A DNA stretch of 64,000 bases from Escherichia coli (GTDB lineage Bacteria; Pseudomonadota; Gammaproteobacteria; Enterobacterales; Enterobacteriaceae): the NCBI RefSeq assembly GCF_036507355.1, contig NZ_AP027877.1; one strand, 5' to 3'. The position numbers were made by a program, and so were the translations under genes. Under the pieces are notes generated by a model that searched no databases, had not been told where the DNA came from, and saw nothing but the letters and a program-made list of their open reading frames with translations. Of the stretch, positions 17,114-25,233 are shown piece after piece. Position 1 is the stretch's first letter. Each line of letters starts with the position of its first letter.

Positions 17114-17135
17114 AAATCTGGCTCCTCTGACTGGA
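17114..17135. repeat. attL of asnU island: 22-nt direct repeat containing the tRNA-Asn 3' end
   Basis: aaatctggctcctctgactgga identical to 25212..25233; the tRNA body does not continue here. Confidence 0.8.
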
Positions 17136-17239
17136 TGCGGATTTTGTTGTAGTTTATTGAATTTAAATGATTTTTATGAGTAGAATAAAAATAAGGCCCT
17201 TAGAAAGGCCCCTCAGATATTTTTGCTTAAAAAGATGAT

Positions 17240-17500
17240 GTAAGTCACATTTTCAGGGGCTGTTACCTGGAGGTCTTAAAACCAACGAGAGGTCGTCATT
17301 CCTGGCGTATAGCGGGAATGCACCAGACATACAGAAACAGGGACTTGCACCAGCTTTAATATAGCTGGCTGCACCAGATCCTGGCGCTGCAAAAGTCCAT
17401 GATTGCGCCAGATTCTGAGGGATTACATCGATCTGAGCCAGAGTTGTCCCTTTGGGTTATAGCCTTTTCAGGTCAGGTGCTGTTACCCTTAGCTGGCCTT
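17240..17500 (+). ncRNA. Structured ORF-free leader upstream of the reverse transcriptase (candidate RT-associated ncRNA)
   Basis: Nested inverted repeats at 17341..17398, three copies of tgcaccag, direct repeat ttttcagg..gctgttacc at 17250 and 17465; no convincing ORF. Confidence 0.25.
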
Positions 17501-17793
17501 TACCCTTTTCCTTTTGACCGTCGGCTATGTGCCAAAAGCGGAATTCCAGTGGTTCTAGAAAAGCTATCATTCCATGGTCAAATTTTGTCGATCACTGCAC
17601 TTATGGAACCGCCATAACATAGGTAGATAGTTGAAGATAGCTAGAACGATGATAGATGATTTTCTTTACAGGGCTGACTTCTAGTCTATCTCATGTAATA
17701 CTCTATATTATATCTAATGTACAATATTAATAGCATTGTGATGTATCGACAACATGGATAGTCCACTGCTATTAAAACTATAATGACATTTAA

Positions 17794-18826
17794 TTGAGAA
17801 ATATAAAAATGACTCTATTAGAAAAATTGTTATCAAAAGGATACTTTCCTAAAGAAGCTCTCCCTCCTTTCTCTACGGAAAAATATGCACGCGCAATTGT
17901 GAATGGATACGATAATCTTCCCCAATTATTTAGAACCGGAAAATTCATAAGTAAGTGCGCTATTCATAATATTTCCAGAAAAGGTACATTACGGAGAAAA
18001 CTTGGAATACCTAATCCCATCAACTTCTTTAGATTAAGTGAGGCAATAACTGAAAATTGGTACGATATATATGAATGCGCAAGTGAATCAACAATATCGT
18101 TGACAACTCCAGACCCTGCCAGCAATGGCGGAAGAGCATTCAACCCAAAGCATTCATTAAATGAGCTTCCAGATATTCATGCAAAACTTAGAAGTAAACA
18201 TAAATATATACTTAAAACCGATATAAGCAGATTTTACCACTCAATATACACTCATAGTATTGCATGGACTTACCATACAAAAGATATTTCAAAAAGAAAC
18301 AGAAGCAATAGTTTATTTGGCAATGTATTAGACAAGCATTCGCAAGATTCGCAAGATGGACAAACAATAGGGCTCCCCATTGGTCCAGATACATCACTTA
18401 TCATAGCAGAGTCTCTGTTATCAAATATTGATCTTAAGCTTAGCGAAAAAGGCATTAGCAATGGCTTACGTTATATAGATGATTATTTCCTAGGGTTCAA
18501 TACAATTGGGGAAGCAGAATCTGCATTAACAATAATGCAGGAACTGTTAAACGAATATGAGTTAGCATTGAACCCCTTGAAAACAGAAATCATACAATTA
18601 CCAATTGAATTCGAGCCATTAGCAATTTCAGAACTAAGGGCATTTTCATTTAGAGATACAGCTGGCGGTCAGAAATCAGATTTAATGCATTATTTCAACA
18701 TAGCTTTCAAGGCAGCAAAAGATTTACCAACGGAACCAATATTAAAATATGCAGTATCAAGGACATTTGAAGTAAATGTTACTGCTGAAAACTATCCTGT
18801 TTTTGAAAATTTTATATTACAATGTG
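17794..18826 (+). pseudogene. Reverse transcriptase (stand-alone UG/DRT-like), 5' portion, interrupted by IS1
   Basis: RT motifs in order: RKLGIPNP (fingers), KTDISRFYHSI (motif A), GLPIGPDTSLIIAE (B'), LRYIDDYFLG (C, YxDD); TTG at 17794 or ATG at 17809; ORF runs into IS1. Confidence 0.8.
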
Positions 18827-18881
18827 GGTGATGCTGCCAACTTACTGATTTAGTGTATGATGGTGTTTTTGAGGTGCTCCA

Positions 18882-19157
18882 GTGGCTTCTGTTTCTATCA
18901 GCTGTCCCTCCTGTTCAGCTACTGACGGGGTGGTGCGTAACGGCAAAAGCACCGCCGGACATCAGCGCTATCTCTGCTCTCACTGTCGTAAAACATGGCA
19001 ACTGCAGTTCACTTACACCGCTTCTCAACCCGGTACGCACCAGAAAATCATTGATATGGCCATGAATGGCGTTGGATGCCGGGCAACAGCCCGCATTATG
19101 GGCGTTGGCCTCAACACGATTTTACGTCACTTAAAAAACTCAGGCCGCAGTCGGTAA
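18882..19157 (+). CDS. insA: IS1 protein InsA
   Basis: 91-aa ORF inside IS1. Confidence 0.95.
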
Positions 19158-19579
19158 CCTCGCGCATACAGCCGGGCAGTGACGTCATCGTCTGCGCGGA
19201 AATGGACGAACAGTGGGGCTATGTCGGGGCTAAATCGCGCCAGCGCTGGCTGTTTTACGCGTATGACAGGCTCCGGAAGACGGTTGTTGCGCACGTATTC
19301 GGTGAACGCACGATGGCGACGCTGGGGCGTCTTATGAGCCTGCTGTCACCCTTTGACGTGGTGATATGGATGACGGATGGCTGGCCGCTGTATGAATCCC
19401 GCCTGAAGGGAAAGCTGCACGTAATCAGCAAGCGATATACGCAGCGAATTGAGCGGCATAACCTGAATCTGAGGCAGCACCTGGCACGGCTGGGACGGAA
19501 GTCGCTGTCGTTCTCAAAATCGGTGGAGCTGCATGACAAAGTCATCGGGCATTATCTGAACATAAAACACTATCAATAA
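19076..19579 (+). CDS. insB: IS1 transposase InsB reading frame (made as InsAB' by frameshift)
   Basis: 167-aa ORF overlapping insA in the -1 frame. Confidence 0.9.
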
Positions 19580-19603
19580 GTTGGAGTCATTACCTACAAT
19601 GTG

Positions 19604-19881
19604 TTACAGCTGACAGTAGCACATTAAAATACACCGTCAATCAGCTTATAAAATACAAAAGAATAGGTTATGTTCAGAACGTTGAGAACATTTCGCATAT
19701 TTTGAGACAATTAGCAATAACTGAAAGCTCACTTGGCCATGGACACGAAGTTGCTTATTGCCTATGGCTTTATTTGATACTACGCATCCCCATACCAGAA
19801 GTCGTCGTTAAAAATGTGGTACCAATGAGAGATCCATTTGTTGCAATTTTGTTATGCGATTGCAGGCAAAAAACCTCATGA
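19604..19881 (+). pseudogene. Reverse transcriptase, 3' portion (C-terminal 92 codons)
   Basis: Reading frame of 17794..18826 resumes after IS1 minus one TSD copy and stays open to TGA at 19879..19881 (translated by hand). Confidence 0.7.
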
Positions 19882-20171
19882 CTTTTATACCTGATTTCTC
19901 AATTTATGAGCAAATGATGGTGATGGAAGAGCTATCGGGCGATATGTAGATTTTTGTCTATGAGATGCTTGCAAAAGGATGGTTTCAACCATTATCAAAC
20001 CAAAATCCAATTAGTCAAAATGAGTGTTATAGGTTCCTATTGAATTCAGGTGTTTTTTTCTATAATGAACATCTCTCATTAACTATTATGGCTGAAAGTC
20101 CAATTGATACAGATGGCTCGGCAGAGGGATTCAGTGGTTGAAATTAAAAATTATCTGTAAATAACTAACCC

Positions 20172-20201
20172 CCCTCCCTTTAATTTAATATTAAGGGAGG
20201 G
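20172..20201 (+). terminator. Stem-loop terminator downstream of RT region
   Basis: ccctccctt / aagggaggg inverted repeat with 12-nt loop, followed by ttgtgtttcg. Confidence 0.5.
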
Positions 20202-20449
20202 TTGTGTTTCGATATACATATATGGGCTTTGGTGAATAAATCAGATTTGGGATAAACATCCCTGGAGACAGTTGCAGCTGTCAGGTAATACGCACGCTTT
20301 TTGCTCAGAACCCCATCAATGCGCCGCCAGCACTTTTGCAGCCAGCCCAGTCGGGTTACGCCGTCTGGACTCCCAACTTTTGATGATATCGACGCTGGTT
20401 CCTTAGGGTTATTGCGTAACGATTTATTCTGCGCCAGTCATGAAAGCCG

Positions 20450-21409
20450 TTATTCCTTCTTCCATTCGTGCGCGTAAACCTGCTTCACCCAGCGACCGCG
20501 CCCGTCGCCATGCCCCAGGTCCATCGCCACCATTGCCAGCGCCTCTTTTTCGCTGAATCCCTGCGCCAGATACCGGCGAATATCGTCCTGCGCCAGATAC
20601 CGGCGAATATCGTCCTGCGCCCAGGCGTAACGCAGCGAATGTGGGGAGTATTTGCCCGTCAGCCCCATACGCAAAGTCTGGTTGCGCCAGTATTTCATTG
20701 CCTGTTTAAGGCTTGCCGCATCAATCAGCCTGCCGTTGCGCAGTCCTGCCACCACAATGGCATTATCGAGCGCCCGTTTAACTGCGCCAGCATTCTGAAT
20801 AAGGGTATCGCGGGGCCGCCCGCCTTTGGTGCCAAACACGATGGTTAGCCGGGTGGCTCCACGTTCAAGCGACTGCCGCCACGTCAGCAATGAACGTGAA
20901 CAGCGTACCGCCTCCTGTGAACGTAACCCCATCAGCCGCGCCAGCTCCAGCGCTGCCGCCAGTCCTGCGTCTTTCAGCCGGGCAGTCTCTGCCATCTGTT
21001 GATAATATTCCGGCGTGATGGCTTTCCGTGTACCATTGCGGGATACGCCAGCCAGCCCCAGCGATTTATTCGATATCCGCTCACTCTGCGCCAGTTTTTC
21101 GCGCCCGGCCTGCGTCAGTATTTTACGGATAGCCGCCGTTTCGTTATGCAGCGTCTGTTTCTGAATACCCTGCGCCAGTCGCATCTGAATATACGCCTCA
21201 ATATGCTTCGCCTTTAAATGATGGACATAGCGTATCTGAACGTTCAGTTCCGTCAGTCGTTCGCAGAACCGTTCTGCCATGGCGATACGGTCATGGACAG
21301 TCTTGTGCGCCCCGCCAGCCTGCCGCGCCAGGTTTTTCATCTCTCTTTCCAGCATACCCATTTTGCTTTTCCTCTTATCTCGCTCCTGATTTTCACAAAA
21401 CCACAACAC
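20450..21409 (-). CDS. Tyrosine recombinase-like protein (second recombinase of the island)
   Basis: 319 aa; box II-like HSLRYAWA and downstream LGHGDGRGRWVKQVYAH with candidate catalytic Tyr; contains in-frame 9-aa tandem duplication. Confidence 0.65.
   Translation of the reverse strand: MLWFCENQERDKRKSKMGMLEREMKNLARQAGGAHKTVHDRIAMAERFCERLTELNVQIRYVHHLKAKHIEAYIQMRLAQGIQKQTLHNETAAIRKILTQAGREKLAQSERISNKSLGLAGVSRNGTRKAITPEYYQQMAETARLKDAGLAAALELARLMGLRSQEAVRCSRSLLTWRQSLERGATRLTIVFGTKGGRPRDTLIQNAGAVKRALDNAIVVAGLRNGRLIDAASLKQAMKYWRNQTLRMGLTGKYSPHSLRYAWAQDDIRRYLAQDDIRRYLAQGFSEKEALAMVAMDLGHGDGRGRWVKQVYAHEWKKE
20565..20618. repeat. Perfect 27-bp tandem duplication inside the recombinase gene
   Basis: gccagataccggcgaatatcgtcctgc repeated twice, giving DDIRRYLAQ-DDIRRYLAQ. 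Confidence 0.9.
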
Positions 21410-22253
21410 ACAACGGATACAGCTTTCCCCGGCGCATAGGCCGATAGCCCCTGATTTTTGTCGGGGCTGCGAGCAGTACCTGAGCGCCGGGGCGACGGCT
21501 GTTGAGGTTTTGCGGGGTATCGGTTGTGCTCTCAGAGCAGCCGCCAGCGTGAGCTGGTCATCCCCCGGACCGTCCTGGTGGTCCCCCTCCGGTACTGGCT
21601 CATGTTCTCCTTTGGTGAATGAATGGTTGAAATAAATGCTGAAAAGCGACGTCAGAAGCTCGCCTGTGGCTGGAACAGTTGATATGACTGGTGCAGATGA
21701 AAATTTCTGCGGGCGTCAGTCTCTCACTCTGCGTGAGCGACTGACGCCCTGGTCTGGCGCAGGCGCTGAAAATTACACTCTGGTGCAGGATGGCGGCCAC
21801 GCGGCAGCAAATGCCTTCGGCAAATGCAGGCCGCAGCCCGTCATGTAAAGGGCGCTGGTAATCAGCAGGGTATAAGTGGGCCGGAGAAATTCCGGCAAAG
21901 AGAAACCGTGCAGCCGGTGAAGGCTGTTGCCGTTAAGCGATGACGATGAAGCCGTCCAGTGTATGTACTCTTAGCCTCAAACGCTTTCGCGTTCCGGTAT
22001 TGCGGAGGTCGTACCGGTAGCAGGGGGCTGGTCGTCCTGATAAATCAGGGGCTTCTTGCAGACCATGAAGCCAAAGGGGCTGTCAACCGACAGCTTATTG
22101 CAGGAGAGAGATTACACCGTAATTTCTGGCGCAGAAAGGGGAAACTCATTTTTCTGGAAATTGAGTTTCCCCCTGAATTTATGGAAAGTTTGTGAATGGA
22201 ACACTGCCGCGCTTCGCTTGTCGTCTCCCGGTGTGCGATTTGCTGTATCAGGA

Positions 22254-22502
22254 TCATCGCTTTCGCATGAACCTTTCCAGGCGATTACCTTTGCCGTCGA
22301 AGTATCTGGAAGGCCAGATGATCTCTGGAGCTATCTCCAGCGCATCTGCAATAAGTTTTTCTCCGCGCGGCCACGGGCGGGAAAGTGCATTTGCCAGTGT
22401 GGAAGAACTCAACCCTGCTTTACGCGATACCTCAGCCAGTGAGGTCCCTTTCTTTCTTAATCCGGCAATGATATCTGCCGGATGCCAGTCATCTTTATTC
22501 AT
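22254..22502 (-). CDS. Ner-like DNA-binding protein (Nlp/SfsB family)
   Basis: 82 aa; WHPADIIAGLRKKGTSLA...GLSSSTLANALSRPWP closely resembles Nlp/Ner. Confidence 0.8.
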   Translation of the reverse strand: MNKDDWHPADIIAGLRKKGTSLAEVSRKAGLSSSTLANALSRPWPRGEKLIADALEIAPEIIWPSRYFDGKGNRLERFMRKR

Positions 22503-22614
22503 TGTTTTCCCCTGTTTCCAAATCTGGTTTTTCTGACTTTAGGAACTCTAAAGGCAATGAATCTTAAGGAATGCTAAAGATGGTGTCAATGTAACTATTA
22601 ACCAAACAGGTTAT

Positions 22615-22914
22615 ATGATCCCTGAACGACTCAAGGCAGCGAGGTTGCGGGCTAATCTCACCCAGGAACAACTGGGCGTTCGTGCAGGCATCGCCGAAGA
22701 TACGGCCTGCTCCCGGCTTTCTCAGTACGAAAGTGGAACACACAAGCCCACATTCAAAATGGTTTGTGCCTTTGCTCGTGTTTTGCATGTTCCTGAATGT
22801 TACTTCTATGCACAGGAAGACACTTTCGCCGAAGCGATTTTAAGGCTGTATGACGGTGAAACTGTGCAGTGGAATATAAAAACAGAGATCGTTCATCATA
22901 CTGAACGGGTATAA
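22615..22914 (+). CDS. XRE-family HTH regulator (copy 1)
   Basis: 99 aa; HTH LTQEQLGVRAGI; paralogue of 23014..23283. Confidence 0.7.
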   Translation: MIPERLKAARLRANLTQEQLGVRAGIAEDTACSRLSQYESGTHKPTFKMVCAFARVLHVPECYFYAQEDTFAEAILRLYDGETVQWNIKTEIVHHTERV

Positions 22915-23013
22915 ACCTCTTGCCTCATCCATCCTCTTTATGAACTCTAAAGAAAAATGCTCTTGAGGAATGCTAAAGATTACCGTCATAAATTCAAACT
23001 GATGGTAATTTCA

Positions 23014-23283
23014 ATGATCCCCAAACGCTTAAAAGAAGCCAGATTGCGGGCTAAACTCACTCAGGAAAAATTGGGGGTACTGGCGGGTATTGAAGAAGCC
23101 ACGGCTTATTCGCGTCTGTCACATTACGAGAGTGGTACGCATAAACCAACTTTTGATCTCGTTTGTGAGTTTGCCCGAGTACTCAATGTACCAGAATGCT
23201 ATTTCTATACGGTGGATGATGATTTCGCGCAGGCGGTGTTGGATCTTCATGCCAGGTGGACAAAGAGAACTACGGAAAGATAG
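23014..23283 (+). CDS. XRE-family HTH regulator (copy 2)
   Basis: 89 aa from MIPKRLKEARL; about 70 percent identical to copy 1; similar upstream sequence. Confidence 0.7.
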   Translation: MIPKRLKEARLRAKLTQEKLGVLAGIEEATAYSRLSHYESGTHKPTFDLVCEFARVLNVPECYFYTVDDDFAQAVLDLHARWTKRTTER

Positions 23284-23299
23284 ATCGCAGAAAATAAAA

Positions 23300-23400
23300 A
23301 ACCCCGCTGGTGAGGCAGGGTTCTTTATTTTTCGTTCTCAGACTGCTTATAGCGACCTGAGCAACGTTGCGCGACAATACAATCCTAGCAGAATAAGTTT
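23300..23400 (-). ncRNA. Candidate antisense sRNA antitoxin (Orz-like) with 20-nt match to toxin 5' UTR
   Basis: gacaatacaatcctagcaga (23373..23392) repeats 19/20 at 23545..23564 in the toxin leader; stem-loop with flanking T-run near 23290..23330 could terminate a minus-strand transcript. Confidence 0.3.
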
Positions 23401-23634
23401 AACCCGCTTTGTTTCCCGTTGCAAACAAACGCTCCCGGTCTTTATAATGCCAGACGCTGGGTTTATCACGTTTCAGGCCAGACCGATTTCAAGCCCTGAC
23501 TGCCGGACGGGTGGTGCCGCAGGCAGTGCCCCGGTCTGGAGCGTGATAATACAATCCTAGCAGATGTGATCCTGCGCCGACAGGCAATGTAAGGGTAAGG
23601 TGCAGGCGTTGCGCTCCTTTCATAAGGAGAGCGG

Positions 23635-23724
23635 ATGGACATGTTGACGCGAAAGCTGATCGTGCTCATCGCCGTACTGGAGCTTTTGCTGGCTCTGCTG
23701 CGGTTGATTGATCTGTTGAAATAA
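23635..23724 (+). CDS. ShoB/ZorO-like type I toxin, 29-aa hydrophobic peptide
   Basis: MDMLTRKLIVLIAVLELLLALLRLIDLLK; SD aaggag 7 nt upstream; single TM helix; followed by terminator. Confidence 0.6.
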   Translation: MDMLTRKLIVLIAVLELLLALLRLIDLLK

Positions 23725-23744
23725 TTCTCAGATTGAAACGCACC

Positions 23745-23770
23745 AAAGGGGAAACACCCGTTTCCCCTTT
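23745..23770 (+). terminator. Rho-independent terminator after toxin ORF
   Basis: ggggaaac-accc-gtttcccc stem-loop followed by ttt. Confidence 0.6.
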
Positions 23771-23788
23771 AATAAATACGCTGCTTTG

Positions 23789-25066
23789 TTACGACGCCTG
23801 TTTCAGGCGGCGGGCATACTGGTAAGCTGAAACATACCCGTCACTGTTTGCATCAAGATAATCTGACCACCATTGCATCATCTCGATCCGCTCTTCCAGA
23901 TATTCAGCCTTGTGAATATACGCAGCGCGGACGCTGTTTCTTTCCTGGTGACTCATTTGTTTTTCAATCGCTTCTTTGCTCCACAGCCCCGATTCACTCA
24001 ACGCACTACATGCCATCGCCCGGAAGCCATGCCCGCAGACGTCTTTTTTGGTGTCATAGCCCATCACCCGCAGCGCTTTATTCACGGTGTTGTCGCTCAT
24101 GCACTTATCCTGGTCGTACTCGCCGGGAAAGATAAAGGCCAGATGACCGGAGAGGGCTTCGATCTGTTTCAGGATCGCAATTGCCTGATCCGACAGCGGC
24201 ACGATATGTTGAATTTTCATTTTCGACCCCCGGTAAGAGAAGCGCACATTTTCGATCTGCTCGCGTTCTTCCGCGATCACCCACAGCTTTTGCTGCCAGT
24301 CGATTTCACTCCAGCGAGCAAAGCGTAGCTCGCTGGAGCGCACAAAAAATATCAGTGACAACTTAAGGGCGTATTTCGTCAGCAGCCTGCCGCAGTAGTT
24401 ATCCGTACGGGTTAAAAGCTCTGGCAGCCTGTCCAGCGACAGGGCCGGGTAATGATTAGTCTCTGGCGCAGCAAATTCACCATCCAGATACAGCGCGGGG
24501 TTCGCTTTGAGCAACTGCTTTTTCATCGCGTAGTGCATGATGTCGGTGACATAGTTTTTCAGCCGGGCGGTGATCTCCAGAAAGCCTTTGCTCTCCACCT
24601 TACGCAGCGTGACCAGCAAATCCTCTGTTTCGATCTCCCCGATAAGGCGATCCCCGATATCCGGGAAAACATACATTTCCAGTCTGCGCATAACCGTTTT
24701 CGCGTAATGTTCAGACCAGCGTTTATGCTCGCCATGCCAGTTAGTGGCGACCTGGCTGAACGTCTGTCCGTTTTTCTTCTTCTGTTTCTCCGTCTGCTTC
24801 ACCGCAGCAGGATCGACGCCTGCATGAATGTTATTGCGTGCCGCTTCCCGTAAACGGCGAGCCTGCAACAGCGAGATCCCCGGGTAGGGGCCAAAGGCCA
24901 GCTTTTTCTCTTTCCCGTCGATACGGTACTTCATGTACCAGAGTTTTGAGCCATTAGGTTTGATCAACAGGTACAGTCCGGAACTGTCTGTCATTTTGAA
25001 AGGTTTGTCGGAGGGTTTGATCTTGCGAATCGTGGTATCTGTTAATGCCATAGCGGGGGGCTCCAT
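23789..25066 (-). CDS. P4-type tyrosine integrase
   Basis: 425 aa (or start at MALTDTTIRK, 25051); arm-binding N-terminus and C-terminal catalytic domain (HGFRAMA); adjacent to tRNA-Asn. Confidence 0.9.
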   Translation of the reverse strand: MEPPAMALTDTTIRKIKPSDKPFKMTDSSGLYLLIKPNGSKLWYMKYRIDGKEKKLAFGPYPGISLLQARRLREAARNNIHAGVDPAAVKQTEKQKKKNGQTFSQVATNWHGEHKRWSEHYAKTVMRRLEMYVFPDIGDRLIGEIETEDLLVTLRKVESKGFLEITARLKNYVTDIMHYAMKKQLLKANPALYLDGEFAAPETNHYPALSLDRLPELLTRTDNYCGRLLTKYALKLSLIFFVRSSELRFARWSEIDWQQKLWVIAEEREQIENVRFSYRGSKMKIQHIVPLSDQAIAILKQIEALSGHLAFIFPGEYDQDKCMSDNTVNKALRVMGYDTKKDVCGHGFRAMACSALSESGLWSKEAIEKQMSHQERNSVRAAYIHKAEYLEERIEMMQWWSDYLDANSDGYVSAYQYARRLKQAS

Positions 25067-25211
25067 TTGCTCACCGAACCGTGAGGCCCCCGATTAAGCC
25101 CACAAAAACTATGGATGTCAAGAAACCCGGTAGCCTCTTGTGAGACAACCGGGTAAAGATAAGTTCTTGTTTTTTAACTATCTCGAGACTCATAGAGATG
25201 TCTCAAAACTA

Positions 25212-25233
25212 AAATCTGGCTCCTCTGACTGGA
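25212..25233. repeat. attR of asnU island (overlaps 3' end of intact tRNA-Asn)
   Basis: 22-nt perfect match to 17114..17135. Confidence 0.8.

Follow-up and report, generated by a model that had tools for sequence, protein, structure and literature searches.

A small genomic island of Escherichia coli (NCBI RefSeq assembly GCF_036507355.1, contig NZ_AP027877.1) carries a three-gene regulatory module at positions 22254-23283 of the 64,000-nucleotide stretch analysed here, hereafter the window. Two tandem genes on the plus strand, XRE1 (22615-22914, 99 amino acids, copy A) and XRE2 (23014-23283, 89 amino acids, copy B), encode helix-turn-helix regulators, and a third gene on the minus strand, divergent from XRE1, encodes a Ner-like protein of 82 amino acids (22254-22502). 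The island is integrated at tRNA-Asn (17136-25233) and bounded by the 22-bp direct repeat AAATCTGGCTCCTCTGACTGGA, which is the 3' end of tRNA-Asn, at 17114-17135 and 25212-25233. It measures ~8.1 kb, or ~7.3 kb without a resident IS1, and has about seven genes in the following order: a Drt4-type reverse transcriptase interrupted by IS1, a short tyrosine recombinase (short integrase) preceded by an EFASI motif, ner, XRE1, XRE2, a zorO/orzO-like locus, and a P4-type integrase.

The two regulators are paralogues: 60 of 90 aligned residues are identical (67%, E=3e-43), close to the 70% estimated in an earlier note made on this DNA from the sequence. That note called both of them XRE regulators, a label that was correct for helix-turn-helix proteins and can now be narrowed. 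When XRE2 was compared with all sequences in PDB there were two matches, the better of which was the Csp231I controller (C) protein (3LFP plus four more PDB entries; E=4.8e-23, residues 1-77). XRE1 shares 39 of 77 residues with C.Csp231I and XRE2 shares 41 of 77, i.e., ~50% identity over residues 1-77 of a small HTH_3 fold, in common with the class of C.Csp231I and C.EcoO109I ('motif 8' of Sorokin). The PADLOC Control_protein model for restriction-modification systems matched XRE1 (E=2.4e-22) and XRE2 (E=4.3e-24), and XRE1 also matched Pfam HTH_3/HTH_31. A 108-residue version of the XRE2 open reading frame is not supported, because its homologues and C.Csp231I all begin at an N-terminus of the MIPKRLK type. 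Controller proteins are the standard regulators of restriction-modification systems, in which they time the restriction enzymes. There are no restriction-modification genes among the genes of the island, and XRE1 and XRE2, which unlike C.Csp231I are present as two tandem copies with no endonuclease or methyltransferase gene, are therefore classified by homology as orphan controller-type regulators of the C.Csp231I/EcoO109I class.

C.Csp231I contacts bases through Ser32, Gln37 and His43 (PMC4321490), and when bound to its distal operator it activates through a sigma-70 contact patch, S16-Q17-E18, whereas its proximal operator overlaps the -35 element and represses (PMC4824078). In an alignment of 16 XRE relatives, the corresponding patch T16-Q17-E18 is invariant, and H43 is invariant within both of the main operator classes described below. 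Residue 37 is Q or H, and Ser32 is replaced by C in XRE1 and by Y in XRE2.

A 45-nt direct repeat, the sole long one in the region according to a repeat finder, is located at 22537-22581 and 22936-22980, with 82% identity, a start-to-start distance of 399 bp, and both copies ending 35 nt before the ATG of their own genes. The repeated sequence of about 45 bp that the earlier note saw upstream of each gene thus persists on alignment, and with the paralogous genes it makes up a tandemly duplicated unit of about 400 bp as proposed; its starting points, given as 22543 and 22942, must be moved 6 nt upstream to 22537 and 22936. Each 45-nt block consists of two 17-bp palindromes of the form CTTWAG-N5-CTAAAG with 9 bp between them. 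Unit A has a putative distal operator that is a perfect palindrome (site 1, 22537-22553, CTTTAGGAACTCTAAAG) and a putative proximal operator (site 2, 22563-22579, CTTAAGGAATGCTAAAG); unit B has a putative distal operator with one deviant half-site, TTTAT (22936-22952, CTTTATGAACTCTAAAG), and a putative proximal operator (22962-22978, CTTGAGGAATGCTAAAG). In the 64-kb window, the degenerate pattern CTTWAGGAAYKCTAAAG matches the four sites of the module with zero or one mismatch and one location elsewhere with three mismatches, against a chance expectation of 0.70, and five matches were reached in none of 100 shuffles; the exact core TTNAG-N5-CTAAA is found solely at three of the four module sites. 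No good additional site that would indicate a regulon was found in the window outside the module, and no operators beyond those of the homologues' own promoters were found on the whole plasmid pM1-5_30 or in loci L020 and L021, which carry related modules.

Proteins of this XRE family are spread over the Enterobacterales and go without a name throughout. A species scan with one genome per species yielded ~55 related Enterobacterales loci with 83 XRE copies, and in all 73 copies with an alignable upstream region, site 1, nine nucleotides and site 2 are laid out 31-36 nt before the ATG. There are two main classes of operators: class 1, to which the window belongs, has CTTTAG-N5-CTAAAG, and class 2 has TGTTCAG-N5-CTAAACA. 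Residue 32 tracks operator class: all 23 class-1 copies have Y, C or S there and all 50 class-2 copies have R, counts that are taken over related sequences, the two classes being roughly two clades. The covariation affects the very residue expected from the crystal structure, i.e., the position of Ser32 in C.Csp231I. Paralogues within one island always have the same operator class. The perfect palindrome of site 1 is kept in all class-1 loci, and the deviations of unit B are also conserved: TTTAT (distal, in the unit-B copies of class-1 tandem loci) and TTGAG in class 1, and CTAAGC and TGTAAAG in class 2. Homology to a regulator with solved operators, conservation over ~55 loci, and covariation with residue 32 all favour the earlier suggestion that the repeated upstream motifs are candidate operators. 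The binding sites of C.Csp231I are a pair of CTAAG-N5-CTTAG palindromes in front of the gene that encodes it, with 18-25 bp between operators (PMC4321490), and the present regulators resemble C.Csp231I in having two palindromic operators with a 5-bp centre upstream of each gene, the proximal one at the putative -35 element. They differ from it in their half-sites, which consist of TTnAG/CTAAA and a single outer base that depends on the class, in the distance of 9-11 bp between operators, and in having Y/C or R as residue 32.

The tandem arrangement is old. Synonymous sites are saturated between XRE1 and XRE2 (proportion of synonymous differences pS=0.82), and orthologues differ mostly at synonymous positions (ratio of nonsynonymous to synonymous substitution, dN/dS, of 0.01-0.05), by which the duplication is judged to be old and maintained, with both copies under purifying selection. 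The tandem duplication described in the earlier note was therefore real, but it is an ancient and maintained event instead of a recent one, and because the operator block is 82% identical when synonymous sites are saturated, it has been conserved far beyond neutral sites. A neighbour-joining tree has a copy-A clade and a copy-B clade in each operator class, with single-copy forms joining copy B, as would result either from duplication in each class separately or from one old duplication followed by co-evolution. In the species scan there are 20 tandem loci (eight of class 1 and twelve of class 2) in at least 11 genera, every one of them with a divergent ner gene; ner accompanies a single XRE copy in 15 loci, and XRE copies lack an adjacent ner in ~16 loci. 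The islands that share the backbone of the window island (short integrase and P4-type integrase) all carry both copies, and single-copy forms, whose exclusive presence in related islands of unchanged context would have refuted the reading of the earlier note, are confined to other contexts (Rahnella chromosomes and plasmids). In ten Rahnella species (loci L032, L035-L037, L040, L044-L046, L048 and L057), ner and a single class-2 XRE gene are found between a HAD-type phosphatase gene and modC with no integrase nearby, and this pair has apparently been inherited vertically.

The Ner-like protein matches Pfam HTH_35 with 115.7 bits (cut-off 25; E=9e-34), the structure of phage Mu Ner (1NEQ, E=1.2e-23) and that of EnrR (7F9H, E=2.5e-20), in agreement with the earlier description of a Ner-like gene on the strand opposite to XRE1. 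With 118.6 bits against the SfsB equivalog model NF007670, it falls under the curated cut-off of 150 and outside the chromosomal SfsB/Nlp orthologues. It has in common with Mu Ner and EnrR the strongly conserved DNA-binding region of the HTH_35 family, and EnrR, too, is encoded by an island, but the present protein is shorter than EnrR at the N-terminus. In phage Mu, ner is divergent from the repressor gene and its product acts in the manner of Cro. No Mu-type transposase or transposable-phage genes were found in the island, so that unlike the gene of Mu this ner lacks a Mu-like context, and its partner is a controller-type protein instead of Mu c. Ner does not covary with operator class: its DNA-binding region is the same in class 1 and class 2, and the protein is 94% identical between the window island (class 1) and another E. 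coli island, L002 (class 2).

The palindromes of unit A, unlike the operators of C.Csp231I, also sit in what is predicted to be the control region of the divergent ner gene. In a consensus scan, the sole strong minus-strand site is a predicted ner promoter that matches the consensus at 10 of 12 positions (22561-22589, minus strand; -35 TTGACA at 22589-22584, a 17-nt spacer, -10 TAAGAT at 22566-22561). Its -10 falls in the left half of site 2, and its predicted transcription start, 52 nt upstream of the ner ATG, coincides with the edge of site 1, such that site 1 would span about +1 to +17 of the transcript. The same scan predicted an equivalent promoter, TTGACT-17-TAACAT, in the same relative position in class-2 loci L012 and L021; a near-consensus ner promoter is thus predicted independently in three loci, and its hexamers are visible upstream in all unit-A regions. 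The best candidate promoter of XRE1 is weak, with -35 TTAAGG (22564-22569) inside site 2 and -10 CAATGT (22587-22592), which would overlap the -10 and the -35 of ner, respectively, and because the two predicted promoters overlap, they would exclude each other. The candidate hexamers of XRE2 are TTGAGG, in the left half of its proximal operator, and TCATAA; this -35 is better than that of XRE1, and the antisense -10 of unit A has been lost in unit B. No intrinsic terminator was detected upstream of XRE2. Past XRE2, a G+C-rich inverted repeat with A/T-run flanks (I1, 23291-23331), which was called as a terminator on the minus strand and coincides with the 3' stem of an OrzO-like match, is likely to be a bidirectional terminator that ends the XRE1-XRE2 transcript. 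About 80 nt past the ner stop codon, a hairpin of 93% complementarity followed by UUUCU (I2, 22138-22172, minus strand) appears in both the minimum-free-energy and centroid folds and is a candidate terminator or attenuator. No sigma-70 promoter matching at least 8 of 12 consensus positions was found between ner and EFASI.

Comparison of the window with L002 indicates that the regulators are exchanged together with their operators. The flanks of the two islands are 92-99% identical in nucleotide sequence (20778 to ~22500 and ~23609 to 25200), identity is intermediate at 23309-23608 (74-90%), and it falls to 45-75% across ~22500-23300. The exchangeable cassette of 22500-23300 comprises the ner 5' untranslated region and promoter, the four operators, XRE1 and XRE2, and on this alignment a block of ~800 bp containing the operators and both XRE genes has been swapped between otherwise near-identical islands of different class. 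Three genomes have two such islands (E. coli SC477, with L003; Pectobacterium betavasculorum, L006 and L012; and Brenneria sp. 4F2, L007 and L014), and in each of them the two islands differ in class, which is suggestive but not significant. Several copies of one further type are present in Photorhabdus genomes. Among 5426 complete E. coli genomes, only 38 have the XRE pair. Plasmids carry single XRE genes with the same operator pair, in 418 records, of which 204 are conjugative. Homologues on conjugative plasmids that are 64-71% identical and have class-2 operators include L075 (pYE854), L076 (a Serratia plasmid), and L071/L077 (E. coli pM1-5_30); on the whole of pM1-5_30 the class-2 operator pair occurs only at the homologue's own promoter. 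To judge from the operators, class-2 islands and these plasmids share DNA specificity, and cross-talk between them is conceivable. A phage-satellite origin of the module was rejected because phages almost entirely lack the XRE family (one weak match in 50,697 records) and the island has no phage genes.

The interpretation that we favour, at slightly better than an even chance, is that the three genes constitute an autonomous, autoregulated transcriptional switch of the small tRNA-Asn island that shuts off ner. XRE1 and XRE2 would bind the four palindromes as dimers. By analogy to C.Csp231I, a dimer at the distal site would favour transcription of the regulator gene, and a dimer at the proximal site would cover the -35 element and repress it, making each gene self-limiting. 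In unit A, site 2 would lie over the -10 of ner and site 1 over +1 to +17; because the XRE sites sit on the ner promoter, their occupancy should shut off ner, and removal of the competing face-to-face promoter should also help XRE1. XRE2, with its own, slightly degenerate operator pair and no antisense promoter, would form a second feedback loop with the same DNA specificity. Ner would be the regulated output and possibly a Cro-like antagonist. Further outputs may be transcription that runs on from ner, past the strong hairpin that intervenes, into EFASI and the short integrase, convergent transcription into the integrase gene, and in other types of island, expression of cargo co-transcribed with copy B.

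The geometry of promoters and operators fits both the proximal repression of C.Csp231I and the competing divergent promoters of another controller protein, C.Kpn2I, which promotes expression of its gene through interference with a divergent promoter that competes with it, and not by classical activation, as summarised in a review (PMC12707154). The likeness to C.Kpn2I, drawn from that description and not from sequence, is in the face-to-face competition of promoters predicted here for ner and XRE1. In contrast, the promoter that competes in Kpn2I is that of the methyltransferase gene, with C.Kpn2I acting as an elongation roadblock, and the partner here is a Ner-like regulator.

Several points weigh against the proposed switch. 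Because the helix-turn-helix of Ner does not vary with operator class and one class-1 and one class-2 island have Ner proteins of 94% identity, Ner appears not to read the class-specific bases, which leaves an antagonist role at these operators unsupported. The XRE promoters cannot be placed confidently, the candidates TTAAGG/CAATGT and TTGAGG/TCATAA being weak. The spacer between operators (9-11 bp) and the half-sites differ from those of C.Csp231I, so that activation may not work in the same way. The hairpin past ner may insulate the short integrase downstream of it. The covariation of residue 32 would reflect few independent events, given the relatedness of the copies and the rough correspondence of the classes to two clades. 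Finally, binding by the XRE proteins, the signs of regulation, the promoter positions, and any effect on the short integrase, the integrase or the cargo are deduced from sequence.

A broader proposal, which we put forward tentatively and consider rather unlikely, is that orphan controllers and their operators were recruited as an exchangeable determinant of specificity (immunity or incompatibility) of small tRNA-integrating defence islands. Temperate phages and satellites have immunity regions (lambda cI/cro; SaPI stl/str) in which divergent regulators have overlapping promoters and operators. The module is like these in its divergent genes, in its overlapping predicted promoters and operators next to an integrase, in the exchange of regulator and operator block as a unit, and in the different specificities of co-resident elements. 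It is unlike them because the XRE family is common on plasmids and essentially absent from phages, because genes for replication or packaging are missing from the island, and because the exchanged block does not include the Ner partner. If the proposal is true, two or more specificities would let islands co-reside without cross-regulation, shared operator types would let conjugative plasmids and islands sense or interfere with each other, and copy B would be a generic controller of non-restriction defence cargo in some types of island.

That the XRE genes serve mainly to time or limit toxic anti-phage cargo after entry of the island into a new cell, in the way that a controller times its restriction enzyme, with Ner as a side player, is a possibility of similarly low probability. 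Cargo found beside such modules elsewhere is defence-like (Drt4, ThsB-TIR, PDC-S19, ResIII helicase, and type I restriction-modification), and in four tandem loci (L008, L018, L021 and L030) a cargo gene follows copy B on the same strand within 60 bp. Past copy B of L012 and L021, no terminator-like site was found. Yet in the window XRE2 ends at the strong terminator-like hairpin, and the Drt4 cargo is 3 kb away, past ner and the short integrase, transcribed from the other end of the island and with no operator near it; moreover, in nine other tandem loci copy B is convergent with an integrase gene at a distance of 5-82 bp.

Somewhat less probable still is that Ner acts genome-wide on the host and that the XRE pair only sets the dose of Ner. 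The model for such a role is the similar protein EnrR of Edwardsiella, a Ner homologue likewise encoded by an island, which counteracts H-NS and has numerous AT-rich binding sites (PMC9023278). The fixation of ner and a single XRE gene at one chromosomal site in ten Rahnella species with no integrase nearby, and the invariance of the DNA-binding region of Ner while the XRE cassette changes, are consistent with this role. However, the longer N-terminus that aids EnrR in competition with H-NS (PMC9023278) is absent from this Ner, and the idea is compatible with the proposed switch and not exclusive of it.

We think it improbable that the orphan controllers are decoys or exclusion factors that mis-time or repress restriction-modification systems sharing their operator type. 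Related controllers complement one another, and a system that enters a cell can be excluded by a controller already resident there (reviewed in PMC12707154); single copies, presumably autoregulated, with the same operators are on the 418 plasmid records (204 conjugative) mentioned above, and on one whole plasmid there is no target besides the gene's own promoter. Against these points, the TTnAG-N5-CTAAA operators are unlike the known CTAAG-N5-CTTAG boxes, no restriction-modification system with class-1 or class-2 boxes was found (a census of restriction-modification operons was not run), in L020 the type I system next to the lone XRE copy has no additional site, and neither the coupling to ner nor the tandem pair would be explained. 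Decay of a lost restriction-modification control region into a remnant with no present function, which the lack of restriction-modification genes in the island and the breakage of its reverse transcriptase by IS1 might suggest, is very improbable and already contradicted by the signatures of selection, i.e., two intact XRE genes with orthologue dN/dS of 0.01-0.05, operators conserved far above synonymous sites, and retention of the arrangement in 20 loci and at least 11 genera.

The rest of the island has features of its own. The Drt4 and IS1 stretch covers 17809-18831, 18827 to ~19594, and on to ~20141, with the left inverted repeat of IS1 at 18827-18849 and open reading frames for InsA and InsB. 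The Drt4-type reverse transcriptase was identified by PADLOC (E=2e-148) from its copy in strain G4/9, in which the gene is already split into open reading frames of 431 and 87 amino acids. The window is the same as strain G4/9 at 22100-23400 but not throughout, because of the IS1 insertion upstream of ~19600. A reading of the reverse transcriptase as part of a retron was rejected because it is Drt4-type and no retron RNA was found by Rfam.

The short tyrosine recombinase (20450-21409, minus strand; Pfam Integrase_1 and Phage_int_SAM_2) is directly preceded on its 5' side by the Rfam motif EFASI (21470-21603, minus strand; 112 bits versus a gathering score of 51), a pairing that recurs in L002-L005 and L007, and EFASI may be either an RNA or a DNA site for the recombinase. 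The short integrase might conceivably be a relaxase of the MpsA/MobK type, with EFASI as origin of transfer, but its sequence matches no solved structure, and its homologues are on only 50 plasmid records, mostly large and typed as non-mobilizable, in varied contexts. The short recombinase (here 20450-21361, minus strand) has, near its C-terminal third and just past the H-x-x-R motif, an in-frame 27-bp tandem duplication that encodes DDIRRYLAQ twice; homologues in other species have a single copy. A 175-nt non-coding element (22030-22205) that contains the hairpin of 22138-22172 is 86-93% conserved in ~217 E. coli genomes, where the short integrase and upstream non-coding elements frequently neighbour type VI secretion or dnd islands from which the module is missing. 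The three loci inspected have the element beside a short recombinase, in islands at tRNA-Asp, tRNA-Thr and tRNA-Asn with type VI secretion or dnd genes and no ner or XRE genes. In the Brenneria island L007, located at the transfer-messenger RNA gene, the place of the 175-nt element between EFASI and ner is occupied by a radC RNA motif (6726-6862, minus strand; 59.5 bits). A 39-bp self-complementary stretch (21711-21749) lies within a block that is ~77% conserved in related islands; here RefSeq has a hypothetical protein of 60 amino acids with no family match (21666-21848, plus strand), but this may not be a gene and may instead be a non-coding element.

XRE2 is separated from the integrase by a locus resembling type I toxin-antitoxin systems (23296-23371, minus strand, and 23635-23724, plus strand), with a promoter-like site at 23419-23448 (plus strand). 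It includes a hydrophobic open reading frame of 29 amino acids, MDMLTRKLIVLIAVLELLLALLRLIDLLK, which we take to be ZorO-like, and a match to the OrzO-like small RNA that is below the Rfam threshold (47.8 versus 60 bits). A 17-nt repeat, aatacaatcctagcaga, at 23376-23392 and 23548-23564 could pair the small RNA with the toxin leader. This locus is probably the toxin to which the earlier note alluded.

In the literature searched, no description of stand-alone tandem controller proteins wired to a Ner-like gene was found, and nothing in the literature on EFASI, PF12835, orphan controller proteins, and yeeO hotspots describes this module. The module does not embody a new regulatory principle; it is of moderate interest, with relevance to the control of restriction-modification, to defence islands, and to the regulation of mobile elements. 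If the proposed switch is correct, the feedback circuit of controller proteins would be a part that can be reused by mobile islands and conjugative plasmids outside of restriction-modification, and its swappable DNA specificity would be decided largely by residue 32 through a compact code, Y or C with C...G outer bases and R with G...C. The module would also offer a handle on how very small defence islands, of about 7 kb and 7 genes, are regulated.

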